This document shows, piece by piece, positions 4,980 through 46,010 of a stretch of DNA of 64,000 nt. A program made the position numbers and the translations under genes. Within the stretch, counting starts at the first letter, position 1, and each line of letters opens with the position of its first letter. The DNA is from Bacteroidales bacterium (GTDB lineage Bacteria; Bacteroidota; Bacteroidia; Bacteroidales; UBA1402): the NCBI GenBank assembly GCA_035719105.1, contig DASTGN010000003.1, forward strand, positions 198,979 to 262,978. Direction: 5' to 3'. A model generated the notes under the pieces. The model was given only the letters and a program-made list of their open reading frames with translations, made no database searches and was not told the origin of the DNA.

Positions 4980-6992
4980 ATGTTCAACCTAGTTTCACCA
5001 TACGTTCCCACTGGCGATCAGCCTGAAGCCATCCGACAGTTGTGTGAGGGCATCCGGCAGGAAATGCCCTTTCAGACCCTACTCGGTGTGACTGGTTCGG
5101 GAAAAACATTTACGATGGCGAACGTGGTGAAAGAAATTCAACGCCCCACCTTGGTACTCAGCCACAATAAGACGTTGGCCGCTCAATTATACGGCGAATT
5201 CAAGAGTTTCTTCCCGGACAATGCAGTAGAATATTATGTGTCCTACTACGATTACTACCAACCGGAAGCTTATTTGCCAACTTCCGATACCTATATTGAA
5301 AAAGACCTGGCCATCAATGCTGAAATCGAAAAACTCAGGCTTTCAGCTACTTCCGCGTTGTTATCTGGAAGACAAGACGTGCTCATCGTTTCATCGGTTT
5401 CCTGCATTTATGGAATCGGGAACCCTGAAGATTTCAAAAAGACCGTCGTTGACATCCATCAGGGACAAATGCTGGATCGGAATGTTTTTCTTCGAAAATT
5501 GGTGGATATTCTCTATTCCAGAAACGAAGTGGAGCTCGAACGTGGCAATTTTAGGGTCAAAGGGGATACGGTCGACATTTTCCTTGCTTACGCCGACTAC
5601 ATTTTACGGGTTGTTTTTTGGGGGAATGAAATTGACAGCATCTCAACCATCGATCCCTTGAATGGTCGAACCCTTTCCACTTCGACTGAGTTTCGTATTT
5701 TCCCTGCTAATCTTTTTGTAACCAGTAAGGAAAACATTACCATGGCACTTGAACAGATTCAGTTCGACCTTGAGAAGCAAGTTGCCTTTTTTAATTCAGT
5801 TGGTAAACCATTCGAAGCCAAGCGATTACAAGAACGAGTCAGTTACGATGTAGAAATGATTCGTGAATTGGGGCATTGTTCTGGCATTGAAAACTACTCC
5901 CGTTATTTTGACGGAAGGCAACCCGGAGAAAAGCCCTTCTGTTTGTTGGACTTCTTTCCCGATAACTTTCTGATGGTCATTGACGAAAGTCATGTTACCT
6001 TACCGCAGGTACGTGCCATGTGGGGTGGCGACCGGGCTAGAAAATCCAACCTCGTGGAATACGGTTTTAGACTGCCGGCTGCCATCGACAACAGACCACT
6101 CAGCTTCGCAGAGTTCGAAGGGGTAAAAAAACAAGTGGTTTATGTCAGTGCGACTCCAGGTGATTATGAATTGGAAAAATCGGAAGGTATTTTCATAGAA
6201 CAGGTTATACGTCCAACGGGGCTGCTTGATCCAGAGATTTCCGTCCGACCAAGCAAGAATCAAGTGGACGACCTGATGGAAGAAATCCATATCCGTTCCA
6301 TTAAGAACGAGCGTGTGCTGGTCACCACGCTGACCAAGCGCATGGCCGAAGAGTTGACCTCTTATATGGAAGGTTTAGGCATCAAGTGCAGTTACATACA
6401 TTCCGATGTAGACACCCTGGATCGCGTTAAAATCATGGAGGATTTGCGACTGGGCGTTTACGATGTTTTGGTTGGTGTCAACCTGCTTCGTGAAGGGCTG
6501 GATTTGCCTGAAGTCTCTTTGGTGGCTATTTTGGATGCTGACAAAGAAGGATTCTTAAGGAACCATCGTTCATTAACGCAAACTGCAGGCCGTGCTGCAC
6601 GCCATCTCGAGGGTAAAGTCATCATGTACGCCGATAAGGTGACGGCAAGCATGCGTATCACCATCGATGAAACCAACCGAAGACGCGAAAAGCAAAAAAC
6701 ATACAACGAAGCGCATGGCATCACTCCTACTGCCATCGTTAAGGAAAAAACCTCTGGACTGGGTCAATTGGCCCGCTCTACCGAACCTCAAGCCTATATT
6801 GAACCGGAAAGGTCCAGCTTGGTGGCAGATCCCATCCTTTCACACATGAGCTCCTCACAGTTGCAGAAGACGATTGACAAAACCCGTAAAGCTATGCAAG
6901 AAGCGGCAAAGCGGCTCGATTTTCTCGAAGCCGCTCAATACCGGGACGAAGTTCTCAAACTGGAGGAACTCCTATCCAATTCGCCAAAATAA
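4980..6992 (+). CDS. uvrB: excinuclease ABC subunit B
   Basis: 670 aa with Walker A GVTGSGKT, the DESH box (VIDESHVT), helicase motifs and a C-terminal UVR domain (LEAAQYRDEVLKLEE). Confidence 0.97.
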   Translation: MFNLVSPYVPTGDQPEAIRQLCEGIRQEMPFQTLLGVTGSGKTFTMANVVKEIQRPTLVLSHNKTLAAQLYGEFKSFFPDNAVEYYVSYYDYYQPEAYLPTSDTYIEKDLAINAEIEKLRLSATSALLSGRQDVLIVSSVSCIYGIGNPEDFKKTVVDIHQGQMLDRNVFLRKLVDILYSRNEVELERGNFRVKGDTVDIFLAYADYILRVVFWGNEIDSISTIDPLNGRTLSTSTEFRIFPANLFVTSKENITMALEQIQFDLEKQVAFFNSVGKPFEAKRLQERVSYDVEMIRELGHCSGIENYSRYFDGRQPGEKPFCLLDFFPDNFLMVIDESHVTLPQVRAMWGGDRARKSNLVEYGFRLPAAIDNRPLSFAEFEGVKKQVVYVSATPGDYELEKSEGIFIEQVIRPTGLLDPEISVRPSKNQVDDLMEEIHIRSIKNERVLVTTLTKRMAEELTSYMEGLGIKCSYIHSDVDTLDRVKIMEDLRLGVYDVLVGVNLLREGLDLPEVSLVAILDADKEGFLRNHRSLTQTAGRAARHLEGKVIMYADKVTASMRITIDETNRRREKQKTYNEAHGITPTAIVKEKTSGLGQLARSTEPQAYIEPERSSLVADPILSHMSSSQLQKTIDKTRKAMQEAAKRLDFLEAAQYRDEVLKLEELLSNSPK

Positions 6993-35619: not shown

Positions 35620-35850
35620 ATGAGCCGTATAATGCACTATTCAGAGTTAATAAAAACAATAAAAGACCGCCGGGAAGCCTTACAGGTAACACAGGAAACC
35701 GTGGCGGAACTATCGGGTGTTGGGTTACGCACACTCAAACAGTTCGAAAGTGGAAAAGGAAACCCGACACTACTTACTTTACAAAAGATAGCCGATGTGT
35801 TGGGATTAGAACTAACACTCACCGTCAAAAATTTATCTGGAAATAGATGA
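35620..35850 (+). CDS. hipB: XRE-family HTH protein, HipB-like component of a tripartite TA module
   Basis: 76 aa. The HTH_3 pattern is QVTQETVAELSGVGLRTLKQFESGKGNPTLLTLQKIADVLG. The stop overlaps the next start by 4 nt. Confidence 0.8.
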   Translation: MSRIMHYSELIKTIKDRREALQVTQETVAELSGVGLRTLKQFESGKGNPTLLTLQKIADVLGLELTLTVKNLSGNR

Positions 35851-36191
35851 GACAGGTAAAAGTATTATTCAAAGACCAGGAAGCAGGAGTATTAACCCAG
35901 CACAACGATGGATCATTTACATTCAGCTACAATGATGCATGGTTAGCCGACAACAACAAACCAGCAATCAGTCTCACGTTGCCTAAAAGTGAACAATCCT
36001 TTCATTCACCATTTCTATTCCCGTTTTTTTTCAACATGCTACCAGAAGGTTCAAACAAACAAGTCGTCTGCAAATTAAACAGGATTGATACAAAAGATTA
36101 TTTTGGCTTACTGATGACTACCGCAAAAACGGATAGTATCGGTGCAGTAACCCTCATGGAAATCATTGGTAATAACACCGCAGAACAATGA
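35847..36191 (+). CDS. hipS: HipA N-terminal subdomain-only protein (HipS-like)
   Basis: 114 aa. The segment VLFKDQEAGVLTQHNDGSFTFSYNDAWL...LPKSEQSF...FFFNMLPEG matches the N-terminal 'couple_hipA' region of HipA kinases. It is translationally coupled (ATGA) on both sides. Confidence 0.75.
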   Translation: MRQVKVLFKDQEAGVLTQHNDGSFTFSYNDAWLADNNKPAISLTLPKSEQSFHSPFLFPFFFNMLPEGSNKQVVCKLNRIDTKDYFGLLMTTAKTDSIGAVTLMEIIGNNTAEQ

Positions 36192-37195
36192 AAAAAAGAT
36201 TAGAAAATAATATTCAACATCCAATTACTCATTGTCCCGGCACCTTAGCTGAAGGTTTTAATGCTTATAGTAGAACATGTCTGAAACGAGTTTTTCAAGG
36301 CAAGGCGGTGCATTGCATATTGCCATACGACTCGCCTGCTTCCAATTCAGAAACAGACAACCTTTTCGATCAAAACAGAAAACGCATGTCTATCTCCGGT
36401 GTCCAGGAAAAATTCTCGGTACTGCTCGAAAAAAATAAATTGAGGCTAATCGAAGAGGGCGAACGTGGCACATATATTCTGAAACCAATTCCTGGAGTAG
36501 GTAAAAATCCCAATCAGATGCCAGCCAACGAACACCTAACGATGCAAATTGCTCGTCAGGTATATAACATTGAAACAGCCGAAAATGCATTGATTTTCTT
36601 CAAAAACGGAGCTCCGGCTTACATTACCAAACGCTTTGATGTAAAAAACGACGGTTCAAAACTGGCGCAGGAAGATTTTGCGTCACTAGCTGGCCGGACA
36701 CCGCAGACACATGGAGAACATTACAAGTATTTGGGAAATTATTTTGAGTTGTTTGAATTGATGCAGAAGCATTTGCCAACCTATAAATTGGAAGTACCCA
36801 AACTATTGAAACTGCTGATTTTCAATTATCTGTTTTCTAATGGCGATGCACACTTCAAAAACTTTTCGATACTGGAGACCCCAATGGGCGACTACAGATT
36901 AAGTCCGGCCTACGACCTGATAAACAGTCGTATTCACATTGAGGATAGAGATTTTGCACTGGATGATGGACTATTACCCAGAAACAAAACACAGGGCAAG
37001 GTTAGTCATCAATTTGCAATACTTGCTGAAAATGCAGGAATCAGTGAAACCATATTCAATGGAATCATGAAACTCTTGCTCTCAAAATCAGCAGAAGTTG
37101 AGAAACTGATAAATGCATCCTTCCTCAACGAAAGTATTAAACGGAATTATTGGCAAGCTTATCAAACCCGACTAAAGAAACTTTCAGAAGAATAA
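36188..37195 (+). CDS. hipT: HipA-family Ser/Thr kinase lacking the N-terminal subdomain (HipT-like toxin)
   Basis: 335 aa. The Gly-rich loop is RMSISGVQEKFSV (S-I-S), the catalytic region is SNGDAHFKNFS, and YDLINS is also present. Confidence 0.8.
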   Translation: MKKRLENNIQHPITHCPGTLAEGFNAYSRTCLKRVFQGKAVHCILPYDSPASNSETDNLFDQNRKRMSISGVQEKFSVLLEKNKLRLIEEGERGTYILKPIPGVGKNPNQMPANEHLTMQIARQVYNIETAENALIFFKNGAPAYITKRFDVKNDGSKLAQEDFASLAGRTPQTHGEHYKYLGNYFELFELMQKHLPTYKLEVPKLLKLLIFNYLFSNGDAHFKNFSILETPMGDYRLSPAYDLINSRIHIEDRDFALDDGLLPRNKTQGKVSHQFAILAENAGISETIFNGIMKLLLSKSAEVEKLINASFLNESIKRNYWQAYQTRLKKLSEE

Positions 37196-37477: not shown

Positions 37478-38737
37478 ATGAAAACGATAGCCTACAATCC
37501 ACTCACCATACCAACCTATGTAATGGCAAAACCAATTGGTTCCAGTTGCAACCTGAACTGCGCCTATTGCTATTATCTTGAAAAGGCGAAATTATACGAA
37601 AATCGTAAGAACTTTATCATGAGCGACGATACGCTCGAAAAATACATTGAAAGTTATATTCAAGCTCAGCCAGTACCCGATGTCTTGTTTTCCTGGCACG
37701 GAGGAGAGACCTTGTTGCGGGATCTTTCCTTTTATCGAAAGGTGCTTGCCCTTCAAAAAAAATACGGCCGCGGACGAAGAATAGATAACTCACTGCAAAC
37801 CAATGGCGTATTATTGAATGACGATTGGTGTAGGTTCTTTAAGGACGCTAATTTTCTGATTGGAATATCCTTAGATGGACCGGAACATTGCCACGATAAA
37901 TATCGAAAAAACAAAGGAGGAGACGGCACATTCCGACAAGTGATGCGAGGCGTCGAATTGCTACAAAAGCATCAGGTAGACTTTAATACGCTCTCCGTAA
38001 TCAATAATTACAATGTCGATTTTCCGCTCGAAACGTATCATTTCTTTAAAGAAATTGGAAGTCAATACATGCAGTTCTCACCCATTGTAGAGCGATTGTC
38101 GAATGTACGACCCGATGGTTTGAACCTACTGCCACCCGACTTTAATGCCAATATAGAATCCAATGCCGGAACCGATTCCAATACAGAAACCGTTTTAGCT
38201 CCCTGGACAGTGGACGCCAAGAAATTCGGTCAATTTTATATATCCATTTTTGACGAATGGGTTCGAAAGGATGTCGGAAGGTATTTTATCCAGCTATTCG
38301 ATGCGACGTTGGCCGGAACGGTCGGAGAACAGCCAGGCGTTTGCATTTTTGGAGAAACCTGTGGACATGCCACCGCGATGGAGTTTAACGGAGATGTATA
38401 CGCCTGTGACCATTTTGTTTATCCCGAATATAAATTGGGAAACATCAAAACCCATACCATTTTTGAAATGGTCTTTTCTCAAAAGCAATTGCGATTTGGA
38501 GCAGATAAGCGTGACATGTTGCCGTCGCAATGTCTCCAATGTGAATACAAGAAACTTTGCAACGGCGAATGCCCTAAAAACCGAATAATCAATACTTCGA
38601 CCGGAGAACCCGGACTAAATTATCTATGCGAAGGTTACACCGCTTTTTGGAAACATACAAAACCTTATATGGAGTTCATGGCCAATGAATTGCGCTTTGA
38701 ACGTTCACCGGCAAACGTCATGAATTGGAACAAGTAA
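37478..38737 (+). CDS. anaerobic sulfatase-maturating enzyme-like radical SAM/SPASM protein
   Basis: The radical SAM motif is CNLNCAYCYY (CxxxCxxC). The SPASM Cys motifs include CLQCEYKKLCNGEC. The overall pattern (GGETLL, NGVLLND) matches anSME. Confidence 0.8.
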   Translation: MKTIAYNPLTIPTYVMAKPIGSSCNLNCAYCYYLEKAKLYENRKNFIMSDDTLEKYIESYIQAQPVPDVLFSWHGGETLLRDLSFYRKVLALQKKYGRGRRIDNSLQTNGVLLNDDWCRFFKDANFLIGISLDGPEHCHDKYRKNKGGDGTFRQVMRGVELLQKHQVDFNTLSVINNYNVDFPLETYHFFKEIGSQYMQFSPIVERLSNVRPDGLNLLPPDFNANIESNAGTDSNTETVLAPWTVDAKKFGQFYISIFDEWVRKDVGRYFIQLFDATLAGTVGEQPGVCIFGETCGHATAMEFNGDVYACDHFVYPEYKLGNIKTHTIFEMVFSQKQLRFGADKRDMLPSQCLQCEYKKLCNGECPKNRIINTSTGEPGLNYLCEGYTAFWKHTKPYMEFMANELRFERSPANVMNWNK

Positions 38738-38762
38738 TTACGCCGCCAAGCGACGTAATTAC
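38734..38762. terminator. stem-loop between convergent genes
   Basis: GTAATTACG-11 nt-CGTAATTAC (9-bp perfect stem) overlaps the anSME stop codon. Confidence 0.5.
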
Positions 38763-38771
38763 CTAAAAACC

Positions 38772-39197
38772 TTACTGAAAACTGATGGTCCAACGAATAC
38801 CAAAACGGTCGGTCAACATACCGTGGTACGCGCCCCAGAACATCATGGCCATCGGCATCTCTGCCTTGCCTCCCTCAGCCAAGCCATTAAAAAGAGCATC
38901 CGCTTCCTCCTTGGACGAAGCATCCAGTGAAATGGCAAAATTATCTCCAGCGGTAGTTCCGCGGCCCATTTCGGGTAAACTATCGCTGCCAAAAAGCATC
39001 GCATTGCCACCTATCGGCAATTCCACATGTAAAACTTTATTCTTTAAGGAATCCGGAACAGGCGGAAAACCCTCCATGGGAGGCATATCCTTGAAATACT
39101 GCATCATACGGAATTCCGTCTTGAAAACTTTCTTATAAAAATTGAACGCTTCTTCAGTAAATCCGTTGAAGTTCAGCGAGATAACCATATTCTTCAT
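38772..39197 (-). CDS. VOC-family (glyoxalase/PhnB-like) protein
   Basis: 141 aa. The sequences LNFNGFTEEAFNFYKKVF, GDNFAISL and FWGAYHGMLTDRFGIRW match the PhnB/YjdN-type VOC pattern. Confidence 0.7.
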   Translation of the reverse strand: MKNMVISLNFNGFTEEAFNFYKKVFKTEFRMMQYFKDMPPMEGFPPVPDSLKNKVLHVELPIGGNAMLFGSDSLPEMGRGTTAGDNFAISLDASSKEEADALFNGLAEGGKAEMPMAMMFWGAYHGMLTDRFGIRWTISFQ

Positions 39198-39257
39198 CTT
39201 GATGTCTATTTAAATTAGGTAGCAAATATACGCATCGACCATTCAAAATTCCAACAA

Positions 39258-40532
39258 TCAGTTCATCAATTTTTTCGAACAGTCGATAGCCGCAATCGTA
39301 CCGTCCGAAACCGCTGTCGTGATCTGCCTGTATTTCTTGCTCACCACGTCTCCGGCAGCATAAACGTCCGGTAAGGTCGTCTGACGATCCTCGTCCACCA
39401 AAATATACCCCCACTTGTCCAAAGATGGGAGAACCGATCCGAGCATCGAAACGTTGGCCTTAAATCCAATGAACACAAACACTCCGTCCGAAACCAATTT
39501 CGTGAACTCATGCGTCAACACATTTTCTATCGTCGCAACCATCTGACCTTCCAATTTTTCAAAAAGCCTTGGTTCCGAATCGTAAATGACTGAAATCTTG
39601 GGATCGGCCAACAACGCATCCACCGCCGTCTGGTTGGCTGTCAGCTTGTCAAACTGATGCACCATCGTAATCTTTGAAGCAAATTTGGAAATGAACAACG
39701 CTTCTTCCACAGCGGAGTTCCCACCGCCAATCACCACCACTTCCTTGCCTTCAAAATATTTGGCATCGCAGGTGGCGCAATATGAGATGCCCTTGCCCTT
39801 GAATTCCGATTCCCCAGGCGCGTTCATCGTGTTGGGTGTTGTTCCCGTGGCTAATATGATTTTTTTGAAACGAATCGTCTCCAATTCGTCAATGACAATC
39901 TCTTTTTTAACCAAATCCACCGAAGTGACATCCACCGCCAGCTTCATGTCAATGCCCGAATGCTTGGCCTGTTCGCCCATGTTGTGCGCCAACAGGTATC
40001 CCGGTTGCGGCTCTTGAAAACCCGGATAATTTGAAACCTGATGCGTGATGGCCATATAACCGCCCGGCAACGCAGGATCAATCAAAACCGTCTTGATTTT
40101 GGCCTGACCCAGATAAATTCCAGCAGTCAGACCTGCAGGGCCACCACCCAAAATCACCACATCGTAATCCGACACCATTGGTTTGCGAGCAGCATGCACC
40201 TTCGAAACCTCTTCGGGCGAAAGCATCCCGTCCAATTTCTCCATCAACTGCGATTTGCGAATGGCACCACTGACGAACTCTGTAACCTGCTTGCCCTGAT
40301 CAAAAAACAAGACCGTCGGTGAGGAAGTCACCCCAAGCTGAGTTGCCAATTCTCGGTTCGCCTGACGGAAAATCTTCAAAAACTTCAGGTTCGAACCGTA
40401 CAGTTCAGCCATTTCTTCGAACTTCGGAGCCAACGCTTCACACGGAGGACACTCGGTCGAATAAAAATCCAAAACAACTTTTCCACCGTTCAAAACCTCT
40501 TTTTCAAAATCTTTTGATTCAATTTCTTTCAT
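39258..40532 (-). CDS. thioredoxin (CPPC) fused to a low-Mr thioredoxin-reductase-like flavoprotein (CATC)
   Basis: The N-terminal Trx fold of about 105 aa carries STECPPCEAL. It is followed by the FAD motif VILGGGPAGLTAG, the redox-active SYCATCDA and the second dinucleotide motif VIGGGNSAVEEA. The NADPH-specifying HRRxxxR is replaced by HQFDKLT. Confidence 0.85.
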   Translation of the reverse strand: MKEIESKDFEKEVLNGGKVVLDFYSTECPPCEALAPKFEEMAELYGSNLKFLKIFRQANRELATQLGVTSSPTVLFFDQGKQVTEFVSGAIRKSQLMEKLDGMLSPEEVSKVHAARKPMVSDYDVVILGGGPAGLTAGIYLGQAKIKTVLIDPALPGGYMAITHQVSNYPGFQEPQPGYLLAHNMGEQAKHSGIDMKLAVDVTSVDLVKKEIVIDELETIRFKKIILATGTTPNTMNAPGESEFKGKGISYCATCDAKYFEGKEVVVIGGGNSAVEEALFISKFASKITMVHQFDKLTANQTAVDALLADPKISVIYDSEPRLFEKLEGQMVATIENVLTHEFTKLVSDGVFVFIGFKANVSMLGSVLPSLDKWGYILVDEDRQTTLPDVYAAGDVVSKKYRQITTAVSDGTIAAIDCSKKLMN

Positions 40533-40569
40533 CTGATAATCAATATAATACGATACTATAATTAAACTT

Positions 40570-41868
40570 TTACTTGAAGTAGTAGGAAGCTCCCAACGAA
40601 AGCAATTCCTTGATTGGACGGCAATCTGGAGAAGCTACCGAGCCGTTTTTATTCTTGGCAACCGACGCACAACCTCCTCCGCATGCCAACGCCAACGAAC
40701 AGTCCTTGCATTCCAAAATGGAAGTGATGTCCCTGTCCTGCCACGCTTCCACCGCTTCGGTGTTCAGCGTAACGGTCGGATAAAAAGTGCCCAGTTCCTC
40801 CCCTTGTTTCCCGACGGTTGCCGTGCAGGAATAAATGGTGCCGGTATAGTCAAACGCCCATTCCGTCTTGCAAGCAGGACAAGAATCGAACAAAGGTTGT
40901 GGTAGCTCGTCGTTCTCAGAGATGAATTTGGCAATGGAGAACGCAGGTTTGTAGAATTCGGCAATGTAGGGATGTTCTTTCAGCAGTTCATACATCGCAC
41001 CGTAAAGCGAAGCACGGTCGTACAACCGGTCTGGCGTGCTGTTGCAATGGTGAAGCTCGTAATTTCGACCAATTTGCGTCTTGAAAATTGGATTCGACGT
41101 CCAGCCTTTATCGATGGCAAAACGCGACAAGGCAGGCAGGTTGCTCAGGTTGTCCTTATCGGCCACCATCCTCAAATTCACGGAGATACCAGCTTTCAGG
41201 CTAGCATCGATGCCCTCTACGATTCTTTTGAAAGTAGGCTGCTTGCCAAGCAGGTACCGACGCGCATCGTGCACTTCTTCGGTGCCGTCCAGCGTTACTT
41301 GAACCTCCCGAATTCGGTGCTTCGACAACAAATCCAGGTACGAAGCCAACGTATAGCCGTTGGTTACAAAAGCCACTTCCAAACCAGCTTCCGTAGCTTT
41401 GTTCAAAAAATGCGTCAGCAAAAGACGCTGATTTTTACCGGGCAGCAAGGGTTCACCGCCAAAAACGGTCACATATTTACGTTTACCAGCAAAATGCACC
41501 TTCACATAATCGAAAAAGGAATCGATCACCTCGGTCGAAAGCACCTGTTTCACAGGCTCATAGCCTTCTTGATAACAATACGTGCAGGCAAAATTGCAGG
41601 AATAATTGGGCACAAAAAACAACTGGACCTCGTCTAATTCGCGGCGATCCAAAAAATCCAGATACGCATTCCGAAACGCAGATTGCTCGTCGAATTCCTG
41701 TGTCAGATAGCCTTTTTCGGCAAACGCACCTTCGGGATCGATTTCCTTAAGGTATCGATCTCTCTCCGTTTTCGAAATCAAGTCGGCACTGCCGTACAAT
41801 GGATTGACGATGAGAAACTCCCCCGGGGCATCCGCCACTGGAGCAACAATATTGTGTTTGGATTTCAT
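40570..41868 (-). CDS. radical SAM/SPASM-domain enzyme (peptide-maturase-like)
   Basis: 432 aa. CNFACTYC (CxxxCxxC) follows an N-terminal extension of about 85 aa. The C-terminal auxiliary-cluster motifs are CPACKTEW...SCTA and CKDCSLALACGGGC. Confidence 0.85.
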   Translation of the reverse strand: MKSKHNIVAPVADAPGEFLIVNPLYGSADLISKTERDRYLKEIDPEGAFAEKGYLTQEFDEQSAFRNAYLDFLDRRELDEVQLFFVPNYSCNFACTYCYQEGYEPVKQVLSTEVIDSFFDYVKVHFAGKRKYVTVFGGEPLLPGKNQRLLLTHFLNKATEAGLEVAFVTNGYTLASYLDLLSKHRIREVQVTLDGTEEVHDARRYLLGKQPTFKRIVEGIDASLKAGISVNLRMVADKDNLSNLPALSRFAIDKGWTSNPIFKTQIGRNYELHHCNSTPDRLYDRASLYGAMYELLKEHPYIAEFYKPAFSIAKFISENDELPQPLFDSCPACKTEWAFDYTGTIYSCTATVGKQGEELGTFYPTVTLNTEAVEAWQDRDITSILECKDCSLALACGGGCASVAKNKNGSVASPDCRPIKELLSLGASYYFK

Positions 41869-41890
41869 AAGCTAACTATTTGATTTTAAA

Positions 41891-41929
41891 AGGGCTGCGT
41901 CCATATGAATTCCATACCGACACAGCCCT
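41891..41929 (-). terminator. long imperfect hairpin between the small Cys-rich ORF and the radical SAM gene (partial terminator or attenuator candidate)
   Basis: AGGGCTGCGTCCATATG-aattc-CATACCGACACAGCCCT forms 14 of 17 pairs. On the minus strand it is followed by TTTAAAAT. Confidence 0.5.
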
Positions 41930-41940
41930 AAAATCCATGC

Positions 41941-42048
41941 TCAGTCGTGACAACCAGCAATGGTCACGGAAACCTTGGCACAGCATTGTGCCACTTTTTT
42001 CGTGGATTTGCCGCTGTTACAGCAGCTTTTCTTAACTAAACTTTTCAT
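41941..42048 (-). CDS. unannotated 35-aa Lys/Cys-rich peptide MKSLVKKSCCNSGKSTKKVAQCCAKVSVTIAGCHD (candidate substrate of the adjacent radical SAM/SPASM enzyme)
   Basis: ATG (42048-42046) to TGA (41943-41941) read by hand on the minus strand. It is too short for the ORF track. It lies 72 nt upstream of the rSAM gene and 74 nt downstream of the methyltransferase gene on the same strand, and contains 5 Cys in the pattern CC-x11-CC-x9-C. Confidence 0.5.
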   Translation of the reverse strand: MKSLVKKSCCNSGKSTKKVAQCCAKVSVTIAGCHD

Positions 42049-42122
42049 CAGAAAGTGAATTTAGTACGGTTCGGTTCGCATGTAAACCAAAACCAACGAT
42101 GAACGAACATGCTCGTTTTAAT

Positions 42123-42773
42123 TTAGCAACAACAACAGCCAGTCGACCGTTTTACGCCAGAAATGGTGAAACTGCAGACTTCGGCCTTCCCTTTTGCATA
42201 AGGTTGCGATTCTTCCAAAATACGGATTTCTTTGAATCCGGCTGTCAACAGCATTTGCAGGTATTCGGGCTTGGTAACCGAACCAGCCCAGCATTCAGCC
42301 ACTGCTTCAGGATCGTTTCGGTACTCCTCGGGAATGGGCTGCGTGGCGTAAATATCGCTCACCACGAACCGCCCACCCGTACGCAAAATACGGAACACTT
42401 CGTTCCAAACTCCCTGTTTATCAGCGCTGTGATTGATAGTACAATTGGAAATAACCAAATCGACCGTTCCATCTTGCAAAGGTAGATGTTCGAGTTCAGC
42501 CTTGAGGATGGTGGCATTGGTAATCGCGAACTTTTCGAGATTCGCCTTGGCTTTGGCCACCATGCCCTCAGACAGATCAATGCCATAAACATGGCCCTTG
42601 GGACCGACCTTTTCAGCCAGTCGCATCACGTCGTTGCCTCTGCCGCTGCCTAAATCCACACAAACATCCCCCAACAGAGCCTCTGCATGAAATACAGCAC
42701 CCCCACAGGACAAACAGCAGGAATCATCCTTGCTTAAAAGCGTATAACGTTGATTGATAGCTTCGTTCGACAT
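42123..42773 (-). CDS. ArsM-like SAM-dependent methyltransferase with a C-terminal CCCC tail
   Basis: The start is MSNEAINQRY (ATG at 42773). The N-terminal Cys cluster is DDSCCLSCGG and SAM motif I is VDLGSGRGNDV. The sequences VISNCTINH and ECWAGS resemble the conserved ArsM cysteines. The protein ends in KRSTGCCCC. Confidence 0.75.
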   Translation of the reverse strand: MSNEAINQRYTLLSKDDSCCLSCGGAVFHAEALLGDVCVDLGSGRGNDVMRLAEKVGPKGHVYGIDLSEGMVAKAKANLEKFAITNATILKAELEHLPLQDGTVDLVISNCTINHSADKQGVWNEVFRILRTGGRFVVSDIYATQPIPEEYRNDPEAVAECWAGSVTKPEYLQMLLTAGFKEIRILEESQPYAKGKAEVCSFTISGVKRSTGCCCC

Positions 42774-42774
42774 A

Positions 42775-43014
42775 TTATTCGGGAATTTCGTCTGTGTCGG
42801 ACGGTTTATTGGCAACCGGCTTCTTCTCAAAGGTATTAAATAATAGTCCACCGACCAATACCCCCCAAATGGAACTCATGATTGGGTTGGAAGTAATGGG
42901 ACATGTACCGCTGGTACAACCCACAAAATGATAATATAAATAGCCACCGACGCCACCCAGAATACCTCCAAGAATGGTCAAACGATGCTTTCGCAAATAA
43001 ATCGGACACTGCAT
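42775..43014 (-). CDS. small two-TM membrane protein with a CxxxC motif (DUF6132-like)
   Basis: The sequence is MQCPIYLRKHRLTILGGILGGVGGYLYYHFVGCTSGTCPITSNP...VLVGGLLFNTF. The stop is 1 nt from the methyltransferase ATG. The start could instead be at 43044. Confidence 0.55.
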   Translation of the reverse strand: MQCPIYLRKHRLTILGGILGGVGGYLYYHFVGCTSGTCPITSNPIMSSIWGVLVGGLLFNTFEKKPVANKPSDTDEIPE

Positions 43015-43084
43015 AATGCTATAAATTAGTTGATTTTCAAACAAATATTATCTACTAAGAATATTTTCCTATTGAAATTATTTG

Positions 43085-43092
43085 CAAATATA
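43085..43092 (-). promoter_or_regulatory. Bacteroidota -7 promoter box for the minus-strand Cys-rich cluster
   Basis: The reverse complement is TATATTTG. It lies 41 nt upstream of the 43044 start and 71 nt upstream of the 43014 start. Confidence 0.4.
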
Positions 43093-43135
43093 AACATATT
43101 TTTGATTCGTACATACAATCTTACACAATTTTTGT

Positions 43136-43143
43136 TATTTTTG
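43136..43143 (+). promoter_or_regulatory. Bacteroidota -7 promoter box upstream of the HU gene
   Basis: TATTTTTG lies 58 nt before the ATG at 43201. Confidence 0.4.
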
Positions 43144-43200
43144 CTATTATGGATATTGTCTTTCTAGGTTCTTATTAATGTACCCGTTAAAAAAACAACC

Positions 43201-43473
43201 ATGAACAAAGCCAGTTTAATCAGCCTCGTTTCTGAAATGAGCGACATGAGCAAATCCGACGTGAAAAAAGTGCTTGAAGCTACCGTAGCAGCACTAAACA
43301 AAGGCCTGTCAAAAGGCGAAAAAGTATTGCTTACCGGATTTGGATCATTCAACGTGGTGGAACGCGCACCCAGGGTAGGCATCAACCCGAAAACCCTGAA
43401 ACCCATGAACATCCCCGCCAAAAAATTTGTAAAATTCGTACCCGGGAAGGACATCACGAGTAGCATTCATTGA
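43201..43473 (+). CDS. hup: HU-family DNA-binding protein
   Basis: 90 aa with the HU signature LTGFGSFNVVERAPRVGINPKT. Confidence 0.9.
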   Translation: MNKASLISLVSEMSDMSKSDVKKVLEATVAALNKGLSKGEKVLLTGFGSFNVVERAPRVGINPKTLKPMNIPAKKFVKFVPGKDITSSIH

Positions 43474-43515
43474 TGCTGCAGACTCTCGTTCTAAGTCTCA
43501 GCGTTCAATTCCGCC

Positions 43516-44427
43516 ATGAATCAAAATCCAGTTTGTAAACTCTTCAACATCCAGTACCCCATCATCCAGGGCGGAATGGTTTGGTGTAGCGGTTGGCGCC
43601 TCGCTTCAGCAGTAAGCAACGCCGGTGGGCTCGGACTCATCGGCGCCGGCTCCATGCATCCCGAAGTGCTACGCGAACACATCCAAAAGTGCCGTGCCGC
43701 CACTTCAAAACCCTTCGGTGTCAATATCCCCTTGATGTACCCACAAATCCAGGACATCATGCAAATCGTTGTAGATGAGCACGTCCCCATCGTCTTCACC
43801 TCTGCAGGCGGCCCCAAAACCTGGACCCCATTTTTACACGAACACGGCATTTTAGTCGCTCACGTCGTTTCAAACACCCTTTTTGCCCGCAAAAGCGCCG
43901 AAGCCGGCGTCGACGCCATCGTAGCCGAAGGCTTTGAAGCAGGCGGTCACAACGGCCGCGAAGAAACGACCACCTTCTGCCTCATACCCCTAGTGCGCCA
44001 AGCCACCACCCTACCCCTTATCGCAGCAGGCGGCATTTCCTCTCGCCCCAGCTATCAAGCCGCCTTTATTCTCGGCGCAGACGCCGTTCAAATGGGAACC
44101 CGCTTCGCTTTGAGCACCGAAAGCTCCGCCCACCCTCTCTTCAAGGCTCGCTGCCGTTCATTAAACGAAGGCGACACCAAACTCCTACTTAAAAAGCTAG
44201 CACCCACCCGATTAGTCGATAATCCATTTTCACAAACCGTCTTGGAAGCCGAAAATCGCGGTGCCTCACCCGAGGAACTCCGCTCTCTCCTTGGTCACGG
44301 CCGCCCCAAACTCGGTATTTTCGAAGGCAACCTCACCGATGGCGAACTGGAGATTGGCCAGTCTGCCGGCTCCATTCGTCACGAAGAAACAGTTGCCGAA
44401 ATCTTTGCTGATTTACTTCTACAGTAG
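43516..44427 (+). CDS. nitronate monooxygenase / FabK-like FMN oxidoreductase
   Basis: The NMO pattern is IQGGMVW, GVNIPL, AEGFEAGGH and AAGGI, with MGTRF also present. Confidence 0.82.
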   Translation: MNQNPVCKLFNIQYPIIQGGMVWCSGWRLASAVSNAGGLGLIGAGSMHPEVLREHIQKCRAATSKPFGVNIPLMYPQIQDIMQIVVDEHVPIVFTSAGGPKTWTPFLHEHGILVAHVVSNTLFARKSAEAGVDAIVAEGFEAGGHNGREETTTFCLIPLVRQATTLPLIAAGGISSRPSYQAAFILGADAVQMGTRFALSTESSAHPLFKARCRSLNEGDTKLLLKKLAPTRLVDNPFSQTVLEAENRGASPEELRSLLGHGRPKLGIFEGNLTDGELEIGQSAGSIRHEETVAEIFADLLLQ

Positions 44428-45237
44428 TAACGATAATTTGCTTTTCTCTTGTTTCCTTTCTGCATTTTTGAAAATTGGCCCTTAGCCGTTAGATCCAGAT
44501 ACTTTGATCCATTTTCTGCAACCTCCACGCTAAGAGCTACGCCCAGAATCCTTTTGCCTGCGACCCTTTATTTGCAGAACTTCTTTATACTGTGTCTGCC
44601 TATTACAAAAGTGAGATTTTTATTATCGCCATCAGGAGGGCAATTTTGCCGCTCTTTTCGCTACTGGAGTAACGATAATATGCCTTTCCATTGCTTCGTT
44701 TCTGTGTTTTTAAAAACATCCCTCATTCACTTAACTGCGACCCAAAATTTGCAGAACTTCTTTATACTGTGTCTGCCTATTACAAAAGTGAGATTTTTAT
44801 TATCGCCATCAGGAGGGCAATTTTGCCGACCTTTTCGCTACTGGAGTAACGATAATATGCCTTTCCATTGCTTCGTTTCTGTGTTTTTAAAAACACATCC
44901 TTCATTCACTTAACTGCGACCCAAAACTTGCAAAACTTCGTTTGCGCAGTCTGCCTATACAAAAGTGAGATTTTTATTATCTCTATCAGGGTAGCAATTT
45001 TGCCGCTCTTTTCGCTACTGGAGTAACGATAATATGCCTTTCCATTGCTTCGTTTCTGTGTTTTTAAAAACACATCCTTCATCCATTAAACTGCGACCCA
45101 AAACTTGCAAAACTTCGTTTGCGCAGTCTGCCTATACAAAAGTGAGAATTTTATTATCACTATCAGGGTAGCAATTCAAATTATCGCTACCAGGAGGGCG
45201 ATTTTGCCGCCCTTTTCGCTACTGGGGAAACGATAAT
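44419..45237. repeat. tandem array of a 177-bp unit (unit lengths 242/177/177/204 bp), each unit ending in AACGATAAT
   Basis: The anchor CTAC(T/A)G(G/T)AGTAACGATAAT starts at 44419, 44661, 44838, 45015 and 45219. The first copy contains the NMO gene stop codon. Each full unit carries the 16-bp palindrome GTGTTTTTAAAAACAC (44881 and 45058; a degenerate copy at 44704) and a ~58-nt element with ATTATCG...CGATAAT ends. Confidence 0.9.
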
Positions 45238-45250
45238 AGGATTTTACTTT

Positions 45251-45450
45251 TTAGGGTTGGTGGATGTGGTTGGAGGTGGTTATGAGTATTTGGAGGTGGT
45301 TATGAGTATTTGGAGGTAGTTATTAGTAGTTGGAGGTAGTTATGAGTAGTTGGAGGTAGTTTTGAGTAGTTGGAGGTAGTTTTGAGTAATTGGAGGTGAT
45401 TATGGGTAGTTGGAGGTAGTTATGAGTCTTTGGAGGTAGTTGGGAGCGGT
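45251..45450. repeat. tandem 20-bp repeat, about 10 copies (TGGAGGTRGTTATGAGTAKT), iteron-like
   Basis: Copies start at exactly 20-bp spacing from 45271 to 45431, with a degenerate copy at 45251. The plus strand is almost free of C. Confidence 0.9.
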
Positions 45451-45594: not shown

Positions 45595-45631
45595 AAGAAG
45601 AAGAAGAAGAAGAAGTATAAGTAGTAGTAGT
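45595..45631. repeat. trinucleotide microsatellites (AAG)7 then (GTA)3-4
   Basis: The sequence aagaagaagaagaagaagaagtataagtagtagtag was read directly. Confidence 0.85.
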
Positions 45632-45635
45632 TCAT

Positions 45636-45748
45636 ATTATCGCTATCAGGGTAGCAATTCAAATTATCGCTATCAGGGTAGCAATTCAAATTACTGCTAT
45701 CAGGTGGGCGATTTTGCCGCTCTTTTCGCTACTAAAGTAACGATAATA
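45636..45748. repeat. 27-bp repeat x3 (ATTATCGCTATCAGGGTAGCAATTCAA) plus terminal GCCGCTCTTTTCGCTACTAAAGTAACGATAAT motif
   Basis: Units start at 45636, 45663 and 45690. The block is related to the internal element of the 177-bp units and ends in AACGATAAT at 45739-45747. Confidence 0.88.
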
Positions 45749-45764
45749 AAAAACCACTAAAAAC

Positions 45765-46010
45765 AAGGTTAGTTAAGACACGAAAGGGTGAGTTAAGACA
45801 CGAAAGGGTGAGTTATGCCACGAAAGGGCAAGCTGAGCAAAGGCAAGCCACGAAAGGGTGAGTCACATTACGAAAGGGCAAGTCAAACCACTCAATGCCA
45901 TACAAAGAAAATCAAACCGAAGCTACGCAAGCCGAAGCCACCAAAGCCGAAGGTACGCAAGCCGAAGCCACGAAAGCCGAAGCCACGCAAAATGAAATGA
46001 AATGAAACGA
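45765..46010. repeat. short tandem repeats: CGAAAGGGTGAGTTAAGACA (20-bp spacing, one 30-bp) x5, then a ~30-bp ACGCAAGCCGAAGCCACNAAAGCCGAAG unit x2-3
   Basis: CGAAAGGG occurs at 45781, 45801, 45821, 45851 and 45871. GCCGAAGCCA occurs at 45931 and 45961. The track ORF 45815-46000 is a translation of these repeats. Confidence 0.85.

Follow-up and report, generated by a model that had tools for sequence, protein, structure and literature searches.

On its minus strand, the window analyzed here (a 64,000-nucleotide stretch of a Bacteroidales genome, contig DASTGN010000003.1, positions 198,979 to 262,978) carries a chromosomal operon that encodes, in order, a small DUF6132 protein, an ArsM-like S-adenosylmethionine (SAM)-dependent methyltransferase, a peptide of 35 amino acids, a radical SAM/SPASM enzyme, and a fusion of thioredoxin to a thioredoxin reductase-like flavoprotein (Trx-TrxR). 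We find that the 35-codon open reading frame (ORF) is a real protein-coding gene and that the operon represents a new intracellular system resembling those that make ribosomally synthesized and posttranslationally modified peptides (RiPPs). That the peptide and the radical SAM enzyme are a precursor-maturase pair of the kind combining radical SAM and SPASM domains with a RiPP recognition element (RRE), locked to an ArsM-family methyltransferase and to Trx-TrxR, is well supported. Our best explanation overall, that such a pair yields a thiol-rich ligand or carrier for an As(III)-like metalloid, is one we hold with moderate confidence; the metalloid role within it is the more weakly inferred part.

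The peptide gene and its conservation

The peptide gene (41941..42048, minus strand) runs from an ATG at 42048 to a TGA at 41941-41943 and encodes MKSLVKKSCCNSGKSTKKVAQCCAKVSVTIAGCHD, whose 35 residues include 7 lysines and 5 cysteines, the latter arranged as CC-x11-CC-x9-C, with no Phe, Trp, or Tyr. It had been picked out by eye from the bare DNA (the sequence-only reading), and the position, length, composition, and cysteine spacing given for it are all present in the sequence. The same is true of the gaps downstream: 72 nucleotides (nt) separate the peptide stop codon from the ATG of the radical SAM gene at 41868, and 37 nt separate the stop of that gene, at 40570, from the Trx-TrxR ATG at 40532. 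Upstream, the methyltransferase ORF ends at 42123. The peptide gene had also been called hidden. It is indeed missing from the ORF list for the window, but the length cutoff of that list is the sole reason; searched as an alignment profile against public gene calls, the peptide is represented by 1424 clusters, and among the 120 listed, all that carry a name are called "hypothetical protein." The window itself holds a single copy.

Six ORFs of at least 30 amino acids overlap the same 180 nt, counting both strands, so the peptide ORF taken alone is no better than chance. The case for the gene comes from comparison. Starting from 261 loci with radical SAM relatives confirmed in Genome Taxonomy Database (GTDB) species representatives, we compared 80, mainly from Paludibacter and other Bacteroidales, in which the radical SAM enzymes are 57 to 85% identical. 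An ORF of 31 to 38 codons lies just upstream of the radical SAM orthologue in 76 of the 80 loci, and the last 16 residues of the orthologous peptides read AQCCAK.S...[AV]GCHD-stop. A 77th copy (L043) shows its last nine codons only, the remainder being cut off by a contig end; another locus without a full peptide (L027) is rearranged and likewise cut by a contig end.

The 16-codon core, residues 20 to 35 of the window peptide (AQCCAKVSVTIAGCHD, 41944-41991, minus strand), occurs in 73 distinct DNA versions. Eleven of its codons are invariant in the residue they specify (A, Q, C, C, A, K, S, G, C, H, and D) while all the synonymous codons are used, and the alignment columns that vary number 4, 5, and 16 at the first, second, and third codon positions. 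Over 2926 pairs, the core has a nonsynonymous difference (pN) of 0.072 and a synonymous difference (pS) of 0.665, a pN/pS ratio of 0.11. Invariant residues with free synonymous change, together with this ratio, mean that the ORF is translated and under strong purifying selection in this frame. The sequence-only reading had proposed looking for the small ORF in orthologous loci; it is there, conserved, in frame, and selected, and it persists beside radical SAM enzymes of 38 to 45% identity.

The peptides share a conserved N terminus, MKS[VL][VI]KK, followed by a variable linker of 8 to 15 residues and the invariant core, a leader/core layout. The five-cysteine pattern reported earlier is present in the window copy; across loci, however, only C22, C23, and C33 are conserved, together with the histidine. 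We considered the N-terminal CC pair as an essential element and rejected it, since it is lineage specific and missing from peptides of the Prolixibacteraceae/Rikenellaceae type. The peptide has no match in NCBIfam or Pfam at E values up to 0.01, and when 31 family members were scanned at E values up to 10, only noise was returned (YchJ, 0.073; GeoRSP SPASM, 0.13).

Beginning 12 nt past the peptide stop codon, fold computation finds a strong hairpin (41888..41929, minus strand) with 11-bp arms followed by UUUU, which looks like a terminator, an attenuator, or a transcript-stabilizing element. For the ORF and hairpin together, the folding energy is -70.5 kcal/mol (z = -5.55); the hairpin does not need the ORF in order to form. 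A stem-loop follows the peptide stop in most related loci, often with a U-run, and the arm sequences are unrelated; three loci with spacers of 3 to 16 nt have no stem-loop. An Rfam scan of 38500-43600 found no riboswitch or RNA family. A consensus promoter/terminator scan missed the hairpin, because its loop and T-run do not satisfy the rules of the scan, and returned one weak sigma-70-like site (42086-42058), a consensus that is not meaningful for Bacteroidetes. The Bacteroidetes-type element TAnnTTTG is found ahead of the peptide in 9 of 76 loci, where 3.9 would be expected, and its positions are scattered, so that it lends no support to a separate peptide promoter. By eye, many loci share a short sequence, (T)ATTCA(C/T), at about 10 to 25 nt before the peptide ATG (for example, TTATTCACAACTAAAAT); the window version, AAATTCACTTTCTG, lies at about 42056-42066.

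The radical SAM enzyme and its closest relatives

The radical SAM gene (40570..41868, minus strand) encodes a protein of 432 residues. The motifs named in the sequence-only reading are confirmed at residues 91 to 98 (CNFACTYC, the CxxxCxxC motif, 41575-41598), 330 (CPAC), and 387 (CKDCSLALACGGGC, in the SPASM stretch). Pfam reports Radical_SAM (73.7 bits) and Fer4_12 only. Against the maturase families of NCBIfam, the comparison that reading had suggested, the best matches are RiPP maturases throughout, and peptide-maturase families alone match, all far under their cutoffs: TIGR04463 (130 bits against a cutoff of 525), CefB NF038107 (123 against 600), PapB NF047865 (109 against 340), SCIFF TIGR03974 (68 against 425), and MftC TIGR03962 (55 against 265). 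The model for anSME, TIGR03942, gives 65 bits against 349. Neither the peptide nor the enzyme had been assigned to a named family from the sequence alone, and with no cutoff reached and no model matching the peptide, that judgment stands.

By sequence, the best match in the Protein Data Bank is CteB (5wgg), a SCIFF thioether synthase, at an E value of 2e-13. An AlphaFold2 model built from 60 diverse relatives has a mean predicted local distance difference test (pLDDT) score of 94.5 and a predicted template modeling (TM) score of 0.91; an earlier alignment of 12 sequences had given a pLDDT of 57, an unmodeled SPASM domain, and weak fold hits. The top Foldseek match of the final model is again CteB (5wgg/5why; E value, 3e-18; TM score, 0.64 to 0.68), aligned over the full length in 477 columns, followed by anSME, SuiB, and ChlB. 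At the N terminus, the model has strands at residues 7-10, 17-22, and 27-32 and helices at 33-40, 48-51, and 58-78, with pLDDT values of 91 to 98. Residues 7 to 78 are thus predicted to have the three strands and three helices of RRE topology, in the place where CteB has its RRE. We assign residues 1 to 80 (41629-41868, minus strand) to an RRE-like domain on the predicted fold. The N-terminal extension had been noted earlier as sitting where known maturases bind their peptides, and the superposition of the model on CteB is in keeping with this.

In CteB, a seven-cysteine SPASM domain leaves an open iron site on auxiliary cluster I (Aux I) for a substrate cysteine. The window enzyme has the cysteines for such a domain in residues 330 to 416 (40621-40881, minus strand), in the pattern C330-x12-G343-x4-C348, C387-x2-C390-x5-C396-x3-C400, and C416. 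All of 60 relatives retain these seven cysteines and those of the CxxxCxxC motif (Cys91, 95, 98, 330, 348, 387, 390, 396, 400, and 416); conservation does not extend to C333 and C275. A seven-cysteine SPASM domain is common to CteB, Tte1186, and QhpD (PMC10352776). Taken together, it is likely that the enzyme is a CteB-like radical SAM peptide-modifying enzyme and that the 35-residue peptide is its substrate.

How close is this pair to characterized systems? With CteB and the SCIFF family (CteA; Tte1186) it shares the domain order, RRE-like, radical SAM, and seven-cysteine SPASM, as well as a small, highly conserved cysteine-containing precursor encoded just upstream and the lack of a dedicated protease or exporter. 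It differs in the SCIFF score itself (68 bits against 425) and in the peptide, which has three conserved cysteines and a CC-x9-C-H-D/G end, whereas SCIFF peptides have six cysteines in 45 residues. The obligate ArsM-like methyltransferase and Trx-TrxR also set it apart from CteB, as do its hosts, Bacteroidales rather than Clostridia. TIGR04463 and CefB give the top curated scores, and the CefB alignment covers residues 19 to 430, including the N-terminal domain. Those enzymes, too, act on cysteine-rich precursors, and the TIGR04463 enzyme of Methylomagnum adjoins CefA. However, the scores here are 4 to 5 times under the cutoffs, CefA is a repeat protein of about 680 residues rather than a peptide of 31 to 38, and the partners of these enzymes are a B12-type radical SAM C-methyltransferase and a 2-oxoglutarate oxygenase, not ArsM- and thioredoxin reductase-type enzymes.

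PapB, the third-best NCBIfam match, and QhpD are likewise radical SAM/SPASM enzymes that work with cysteine donors; they join Cys to Asp or Glu by thioethers, in ranthipeptides and in the maturation of quinohemoprotein amine dehydrogenase, respectively. The C-H-D end of the peptide offers a possible Cys-Asp pair. The PapB score is below cutoff, however, the peptide has no CX3[DE] repeats, and the terminal residue is Gly at one distant locus (L082), which means that not all members of the family can be modified through a Cys-Asp link. The resemblance to mycofactocin (MftA/MftB/MftC) lies in the small invariant C-terminal core, the radical SAM/SPASM enzyme, the absence of export, and the link to redox enzymes. 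In contrast to that system, the RRE-like domain is fused here rather than being a separate MftB, there is no MftE-like peptidase or glycosyltransferase, and the chemistry would be based on cysteine and not on Val-Tyr.

The conserved cassette and its partner enzymes

The association of the four genes is a property of the family and not of the window alone. By tblastn, the methyltransferase is found in 74 of the 80 loci and Trx-TrxR in 76, and the order is always methyltransferase, peptide, radical SAM, Trx-TrxR. A more distant protein (P0267, 33% identity; L081:1028-3406) joins a radical SAM enzyme and an ArsM-like methyltransferase in one polypeptide, which ends in ...KACCSENGAPC. The sequence-only reading had the methyltransferase adjoining the peptide, as it does, but only as a neighbor; given its presence in 74 of 80 loci and this fusion, it is a core partner.

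The peptide and the enzyme co-vary over large distances. Four loci outside the main set, with radical SAM enzymes of 44, 42, 41, and 38% identity, have peptides that retain CC[AS]K.S....GCH[DG]-stop. The 44% enzyme (L082) is fused to DUF5714 and is preceded by a peptide ending in ...TAQCCSKSSKIVAGCHG, with the methyltransferase upstream and Trx-TrxR downstream, an arrangement also found with the 41% enzyme (L083; peptide ...ALCCAKQSSVKTGCHD). With the 42% enzyme (L085; peptide ...GQCCAKSSKVVSGCHD), Trx-TrxR and the methyltransferase both lie upstream. With the 38% enzyme (L088; peptide ...TAQCCAKSTKLAVGCHD), thioredoxin, DUF6132, and methyltransferase genes lie upstream and Trx-TrxR downstream. 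No cassette is present at the locus of a 37% relative (P0248, L086), and the wider clade therefore includes enzymes that lack the association.

A radical SAM relative is encoded in at least 261 species-level genomes, and the cassette is carried by anaerobic Bacteroidales in the hundreds and by certain less closely related bacteria; the Bacteroidales carriers live in sediments, groundwater, and wastewater. The 25 most widespread clusters of neighboring ORFs in the 80 loci include no peptidase, no exporter or transporter, and no immunity gene. This agrees with the earlier remark that the cluster has no peptidase or exporter, and, together with the presence of Trx-TrxR in 76 of 80 loci, it fits the intracellular product that had been argued for.

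The methyltransferase (42123..42773, minus strand) has 216 residues counted from an ATG at 42773; the ORF listed from a GTG at 42851 is an upstream extension of this true start. Family scores, structures, and conservation all bear on its identity. It has a class I SAM-binding fold (VDLGSGRG at residues 39 to 46; Pfam Methyltransf_31, 113.8 bits), and among solved structures its nearest neighbors are without exception ArsM proteins (5evj, with an E value of 2e-24, followed by 8xt7 and 4fr0). It is short and lacks the C-terminal domain of ArsM. Its SNC (Cys111) and ECWAG (Cys161) motifs align with SNC and ECLAG of 5evj, and residue 23 corresponds to about residue 72 of 4fr0; we take its cysteines to be the equivalents of CmArsM Cys72, Cys174, and Cys224 plus an N-terminal Cys. 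Each of Cys19, Cys23, Cys111, and Cys161 is retained by more than 95% of 74 orthologues, distant ones included. The CCCC tail of the window copy, which might have served as a conserved "swinging arm," was rejected as lineage specific. From these alignments, the enzyme is ArsM-like and retains the As(III)-binding cysteines of ArsM.

Trx-TrxR (39258..40532, minus strand) is recognized by Pfam Thioredoxin and Pyr_redox_2 and by NCBIfam TRX_reduct (TIGR01292), the last at 289 bits against a cutoff of 343, which is not reached; it also has a 240-bit match to the thioredoxin reductase 2q7v. Its motifs are GGGPAG for flavin adenine dinucleotide, CATC (39768-39779), GGGNSA, and, in the thioredoxin part, CPPC (40440-40451). 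HRRD of 2q7v, which binds the 2'-phosphate of NADPH, aligns with HQFD (residues 292 to 295; 39648-39659), and HQFD is also present in the L028 and L088 orthologues. This replacement suggests that the electron donor may not be NADPH, and by alignment the enzyme may use NADH or another donor. Of note, the thioredoxin system is a known reductant of ArsM.

The operon opens with an accessory gene, DUF6132 (42775..43044, minus strand; Pfam score, 25.6 bits; cutoff, 23.2), whose product is a small membrane protein with the motif GCTSGTCPIT (GCxSGxC in general form). The DUF6132 stop codon abuts the methyltransferase ATG in the window, and 12 of the 80 loci, as well as the distant L088, have an orthologue upstream of the methyltransferase. 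In L066 and L075, a DUF6132 gene stands directly before the radical SAM gene, and the proteins end in ...SPCSGGRC and ...SPCSNGKC.

Relatives beyond the cassette proper give some indication of its chemistry. In P0242 and P0250 (L082:5001-7184), the radical SAM enzyme is fused to DUF5714, with an RCCKR[ED] motif, and the NCBIfam model that matches the DUF5714 part is named "metal-binding double selenoprotein MbdU." In a sister branch of radical SAM enzymes (34% identity), the proteins encoded upstream end in (A/P)QCCSTTYFCACSS[YT], constituting a second "QCC" precursor family (L087:101-310; L090:1721-2086; L091 and L093, both 6001-6426; P0391-P0397). In seven protein clusters of this family, the tail QCCSTTYFCACSST belongs to an ArsD-like protein of about 140 residues with an N-terminal ..ACCG.. 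(Pfam ArsD score, 31.2 bits; cutoff, 27), encoded directly upstream of the radical SAM gene. Near the ArsD-like protein, L091 has a canonical ArsM-like gene and L093 has a MIP aquaglyceroporin, CobW, and a further CC-rich protein. Other neighbors in this branch include a B12-type radical SAM enzyme and CC-rich small proteins. With an ArsM-like methyltransferase in the cassette and an ArsD-like sister branch, the system leans to metalloid or thiol chemistry.

The comparison with arsenic systems supports this lean in part. The methyltransferase is nearest to solved ArsM structures and keeps their cysteines, a radical SAM enzyme is paired with an ArsM-like gene as in ArsL/ArsM and ArsS/ArsM, the vicinal CC of the peptide resembles the CC sites of ArsD, and the sister branch fuses an ArsD-like domain to a QCC tail. 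Unlike ArsL and ArsS, however, the radical SAM enzyme here is a SPASM/RRE peptide maturase.

The surroundings of the cassette are ordinary chromosome, with genes for S16, HU, and polysaccharide synthesis. In the plasmid database PLSDB, all relatives are below 30% identity, and hence the cassette is not plasmid borne there. A gene for a VOC/YjdN-like protein (38772..39197, minus strand; NCBIfam YjdN, 49.5 bits against a cutoff of 122) begins 60 nt downstream of Trx-TrxR; it was considered as a member of the system and rejected, with tblastn matches in 0 of 80 related loci. A second radical SAM/SPASM gene (37478-38737, plus strand) is convergent with the cassette and codes for a genuine anaerobic sulfatase-maturating enzyme, which exceeds the cutoff of NCBIfam PRK13745 (625 bits; cutoff, 484) and is unrelated to the cassette, with 25 to 31% identity in the radical SAM core only. 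A HipA-type toxin kinase is split over two overlapping ORFs (35847-36191 and 36188-37195, plus strand), one with the HipA N-terminal domain (Couple_hipA) and the other with HipA_C. Repeat-rich, apparently noncoding DNA occupies 44594-45176, 45269-45441, 45624-45704, 45767-45828, and 45913-45990, with units of 177 nt (3.3 copies, 93% matches), 20 nt (8.6 copies), 27 nt (3 copies), 20 nt (3.1 copies), and 15/30 nt. In 37 of the 80 loci, a gene for an IS1595-type zinc-ribbon protein (142 residues, no transposase body; for example, L025:4090-4518) is divergent from the methyltransferase, about 1.7 kb upstream of the radical SAM gene on the opposite strand. This gene is missing from the window; its product may be a regulator of the cassette.

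A possible role for the matured peptide

We imagine that the RRE-like domain would bind the short conserved MKSxxKK leader, presenting the invariant C-terminal core CC[AS]K.S....GCH[DG] to the radical SAM enzyme. By analogy with CteB, a substrate cysteine would ligate the open site of auxiliary cluster I, and 5'-deoxyadenosyl radical chemistry would install at least one intramolecular thioether cross-link. Given the similarity to CteB and the seven-cysteine SPASM domain, thioether cross-linking is probably the core chemistry, and Lys25, Ser27, and His34 are universally conserved candidates for the acceptor. With no conserved protease or exporter, the product would stay in the cell, probably with its leader still attached. 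It may retain thiols, in the vicinal CC pair and/or as a Cys-His pair, and work with the methyltransferase and Trx-TrxR, the latter keeping the cysteines of peptide and enzymes reduced. It would then carry or ligate a thiophilic As(III)-like metalloid and present it to the methyltransferase, possibly doing as a ribosomal product what As(GS)3 or the CC tails of ArsD do. Alternatively, the methyltransferase may methylate the peptide itself. In broad terms, the system probably handles thiophilic metalloids or redox. The most specific version, in which the cross-linked QCC...GCH[DG] peptide is a thiol cofactor or metallochaperone that takes up As(III) or another thiophilic metalloid at its vicinal cysteines and passes it to the methyltransferase while Trx-TrxR resets the cysteines, is a tentative proposal that we consider rather unlikely. 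If true, it would provide a peptide substitute for glutathione or ArsD in metalloid methylation, in glutathione-free anaerobes, and a new functional class of RiPP.

Several observations weigh against a metalloid-handling precursor-maturase system. For the radical SAM enzyme, the Pfam SPASM model (PF13186) did not report it, no curated NCBIfam cutoff is reached by it or by relatives at 31 to 45% identity, and the RRE assignment comes from fold and topology only. Two loci (L066 and L075) keep the radical SAM and Trx-TrxR genes with no methyltransferase or peptide nearby. The 216-residue methyltransferase scores 199 bits against the PRK11873 (arsenite methyltransferase) cutoff of 263, and, unlike in ars systems, the conserved neighborhood has no arsR, acr3, arsC, or arsA. 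With the terminal Asp replaced by Gly in L082, no acceptor residue for the cross-link can be named. In Paludibacter, the cassette is often followed by genes for DUF1847, thioredoxin, rhodanese, CoADR-rhodanese, a YgaP-like transmembrane protein, DUF302, and a BLH-phosphatase-like protein, neighbors of the sulfide/persulfide-stress type, and the distant loci have regulators of the CsoR type with C-H-C (L082), of the CsoR family with two cysteines and divergent (L085), or of the Rrf2 type (L088). The physiological trigger could thus be reactive sulfur, copper, or general thiol stress and not arsenic. None of these extra Paludibacter genes or distant-locus regulators is present in the window.

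Such neighbors are what one would expect if the product were a peptide-derived redox cofactor or dithiol, following the logic of mycofactocin or of low-molecular-weight thiols, with its disulfide recycled by Trx-TrxR and the methyltransferase decorating it, no metalloid being involved. The core is invariant over a wide phylogenetic distance, as in housekeeping RiPP cofactors; the disulfide reductase is dedicated, always linked, and altered in its pyridine nucleotide motif; and the thioredoxin, rhodanese, and CoADR-rhodanese neighbors and the divergent two-Cys regulator of L085, which is CstR-like, belong to the same chemistry. A cofactor of this kind leaves unexplained, however, why the methyltransferase retains the metalloid-binding cysteines of ArsM and why QCC tails are found on ArsD-like domains beside an ArsM-like gene and a MIP channel; the similarity to MftC is also weak (54.7 bits against 265). 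We regard it as unlikely.

A second alternative dispenses with modification. Three invariant cysteines and a histidine make a plausible soft-metal site, so the peptide could be an unmodified metal- or metalloid-binding mini-protein, comparable to ArsD CC tails or a 3Cys-1His site, while the radical SAM enzyme acts on a small molecule or on a protein of the operon. The ArsM-like, ArsD-like, and DUF5714 "metal-binding" partners would suit such a protein, as would L066 and L075, where the radical SAM gene has no peptide nearby. This is quite unlikely in our view: the enzyme has the architecture of CteB, the known role of RRE-like domains is to bind leaders, the peptide gene directly precedes that of the enzyme in 76 of 80 loci and still accompanies it at 38% identity, and MKSxxKK, a variable linker, and a core form a leader/core arrangement and not the layout of a metal site.

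A secreted antimicrobial sactipeptide or ranthipeptide fits poorly and is very improbable. The gene pair does bear the signature of radical SAM/SPASM cysteine RiPPs, with CteB, PapB, and CefB as the nearest families, but no leader peptidase, ABC exporter, or immunity gene is found in the 25 most widespread neighbor clusters, the core, in contrast to bacteriocins, which diversify, hardly changes between families and orders, and the obligate partner enzymes, for redox and for methyl transfer, are cytoplasmic. Finally, a cysteine-codon leader peptide that senses Cys-tRNA charging, with an attenuator before the radical SAM gene, would account for a short ORF with tandem Cys codons followed at once by a hairpin and U-run in most loci, but it is scarcely credible and was rejected: the whole 16-residue sequence is selected (A, Q, A, K, S, G, H, and D besides C, with 11 residues of six kinds invariant) while synonymous change is free, the fold shows no alternative anti-terminator pairing that involves the ORF, and hairpin sequences are unrelated between loci and missing from three.

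The sequence-only reading had proposed an undescribed peptide-modification system, and we found no family model or description that would contradict this. Pfam and NCBIfam (release of June 2026) have no model for the peptide and name the enzyme no further than "radical SAM protein," and a literature search found no description of a system of peptide, radical SAM enzyme, methyltransferase, and Trx-TrxR; a study mining Bacteroidales for RiPPs reports no radical SAM region in Paludibacteraceae (PMC10352776). Cysteine-containing peptides modified by radical SAM/SPASM enzymes are known; the novelty lies in this family of precursors, in their subfamily of maturases, and in an obligate partnership with an ArsM-like methyltransferase and Trx-TrxR.

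On the plainest reading, a new family of precursors and maturases is described, and its core, very short at 16 residues and invariant, is tractable by experiment. The cassette joins radical SAM/SPASM peptide maturation to ArsM/ArsD-type metalloid chemistry with a dedicated thioredoxin system, two fields that had been separate. Provided that the product acts inside the cell as a thiol ligand or cofactor, it would represent a new functional class of modified peptide beside PQQ and mycofactocin, and it could bear on how strict anaerobes handle and methylate arsenic-like metalloids and thus on arsenic speciation in paddy soils and aquifers.

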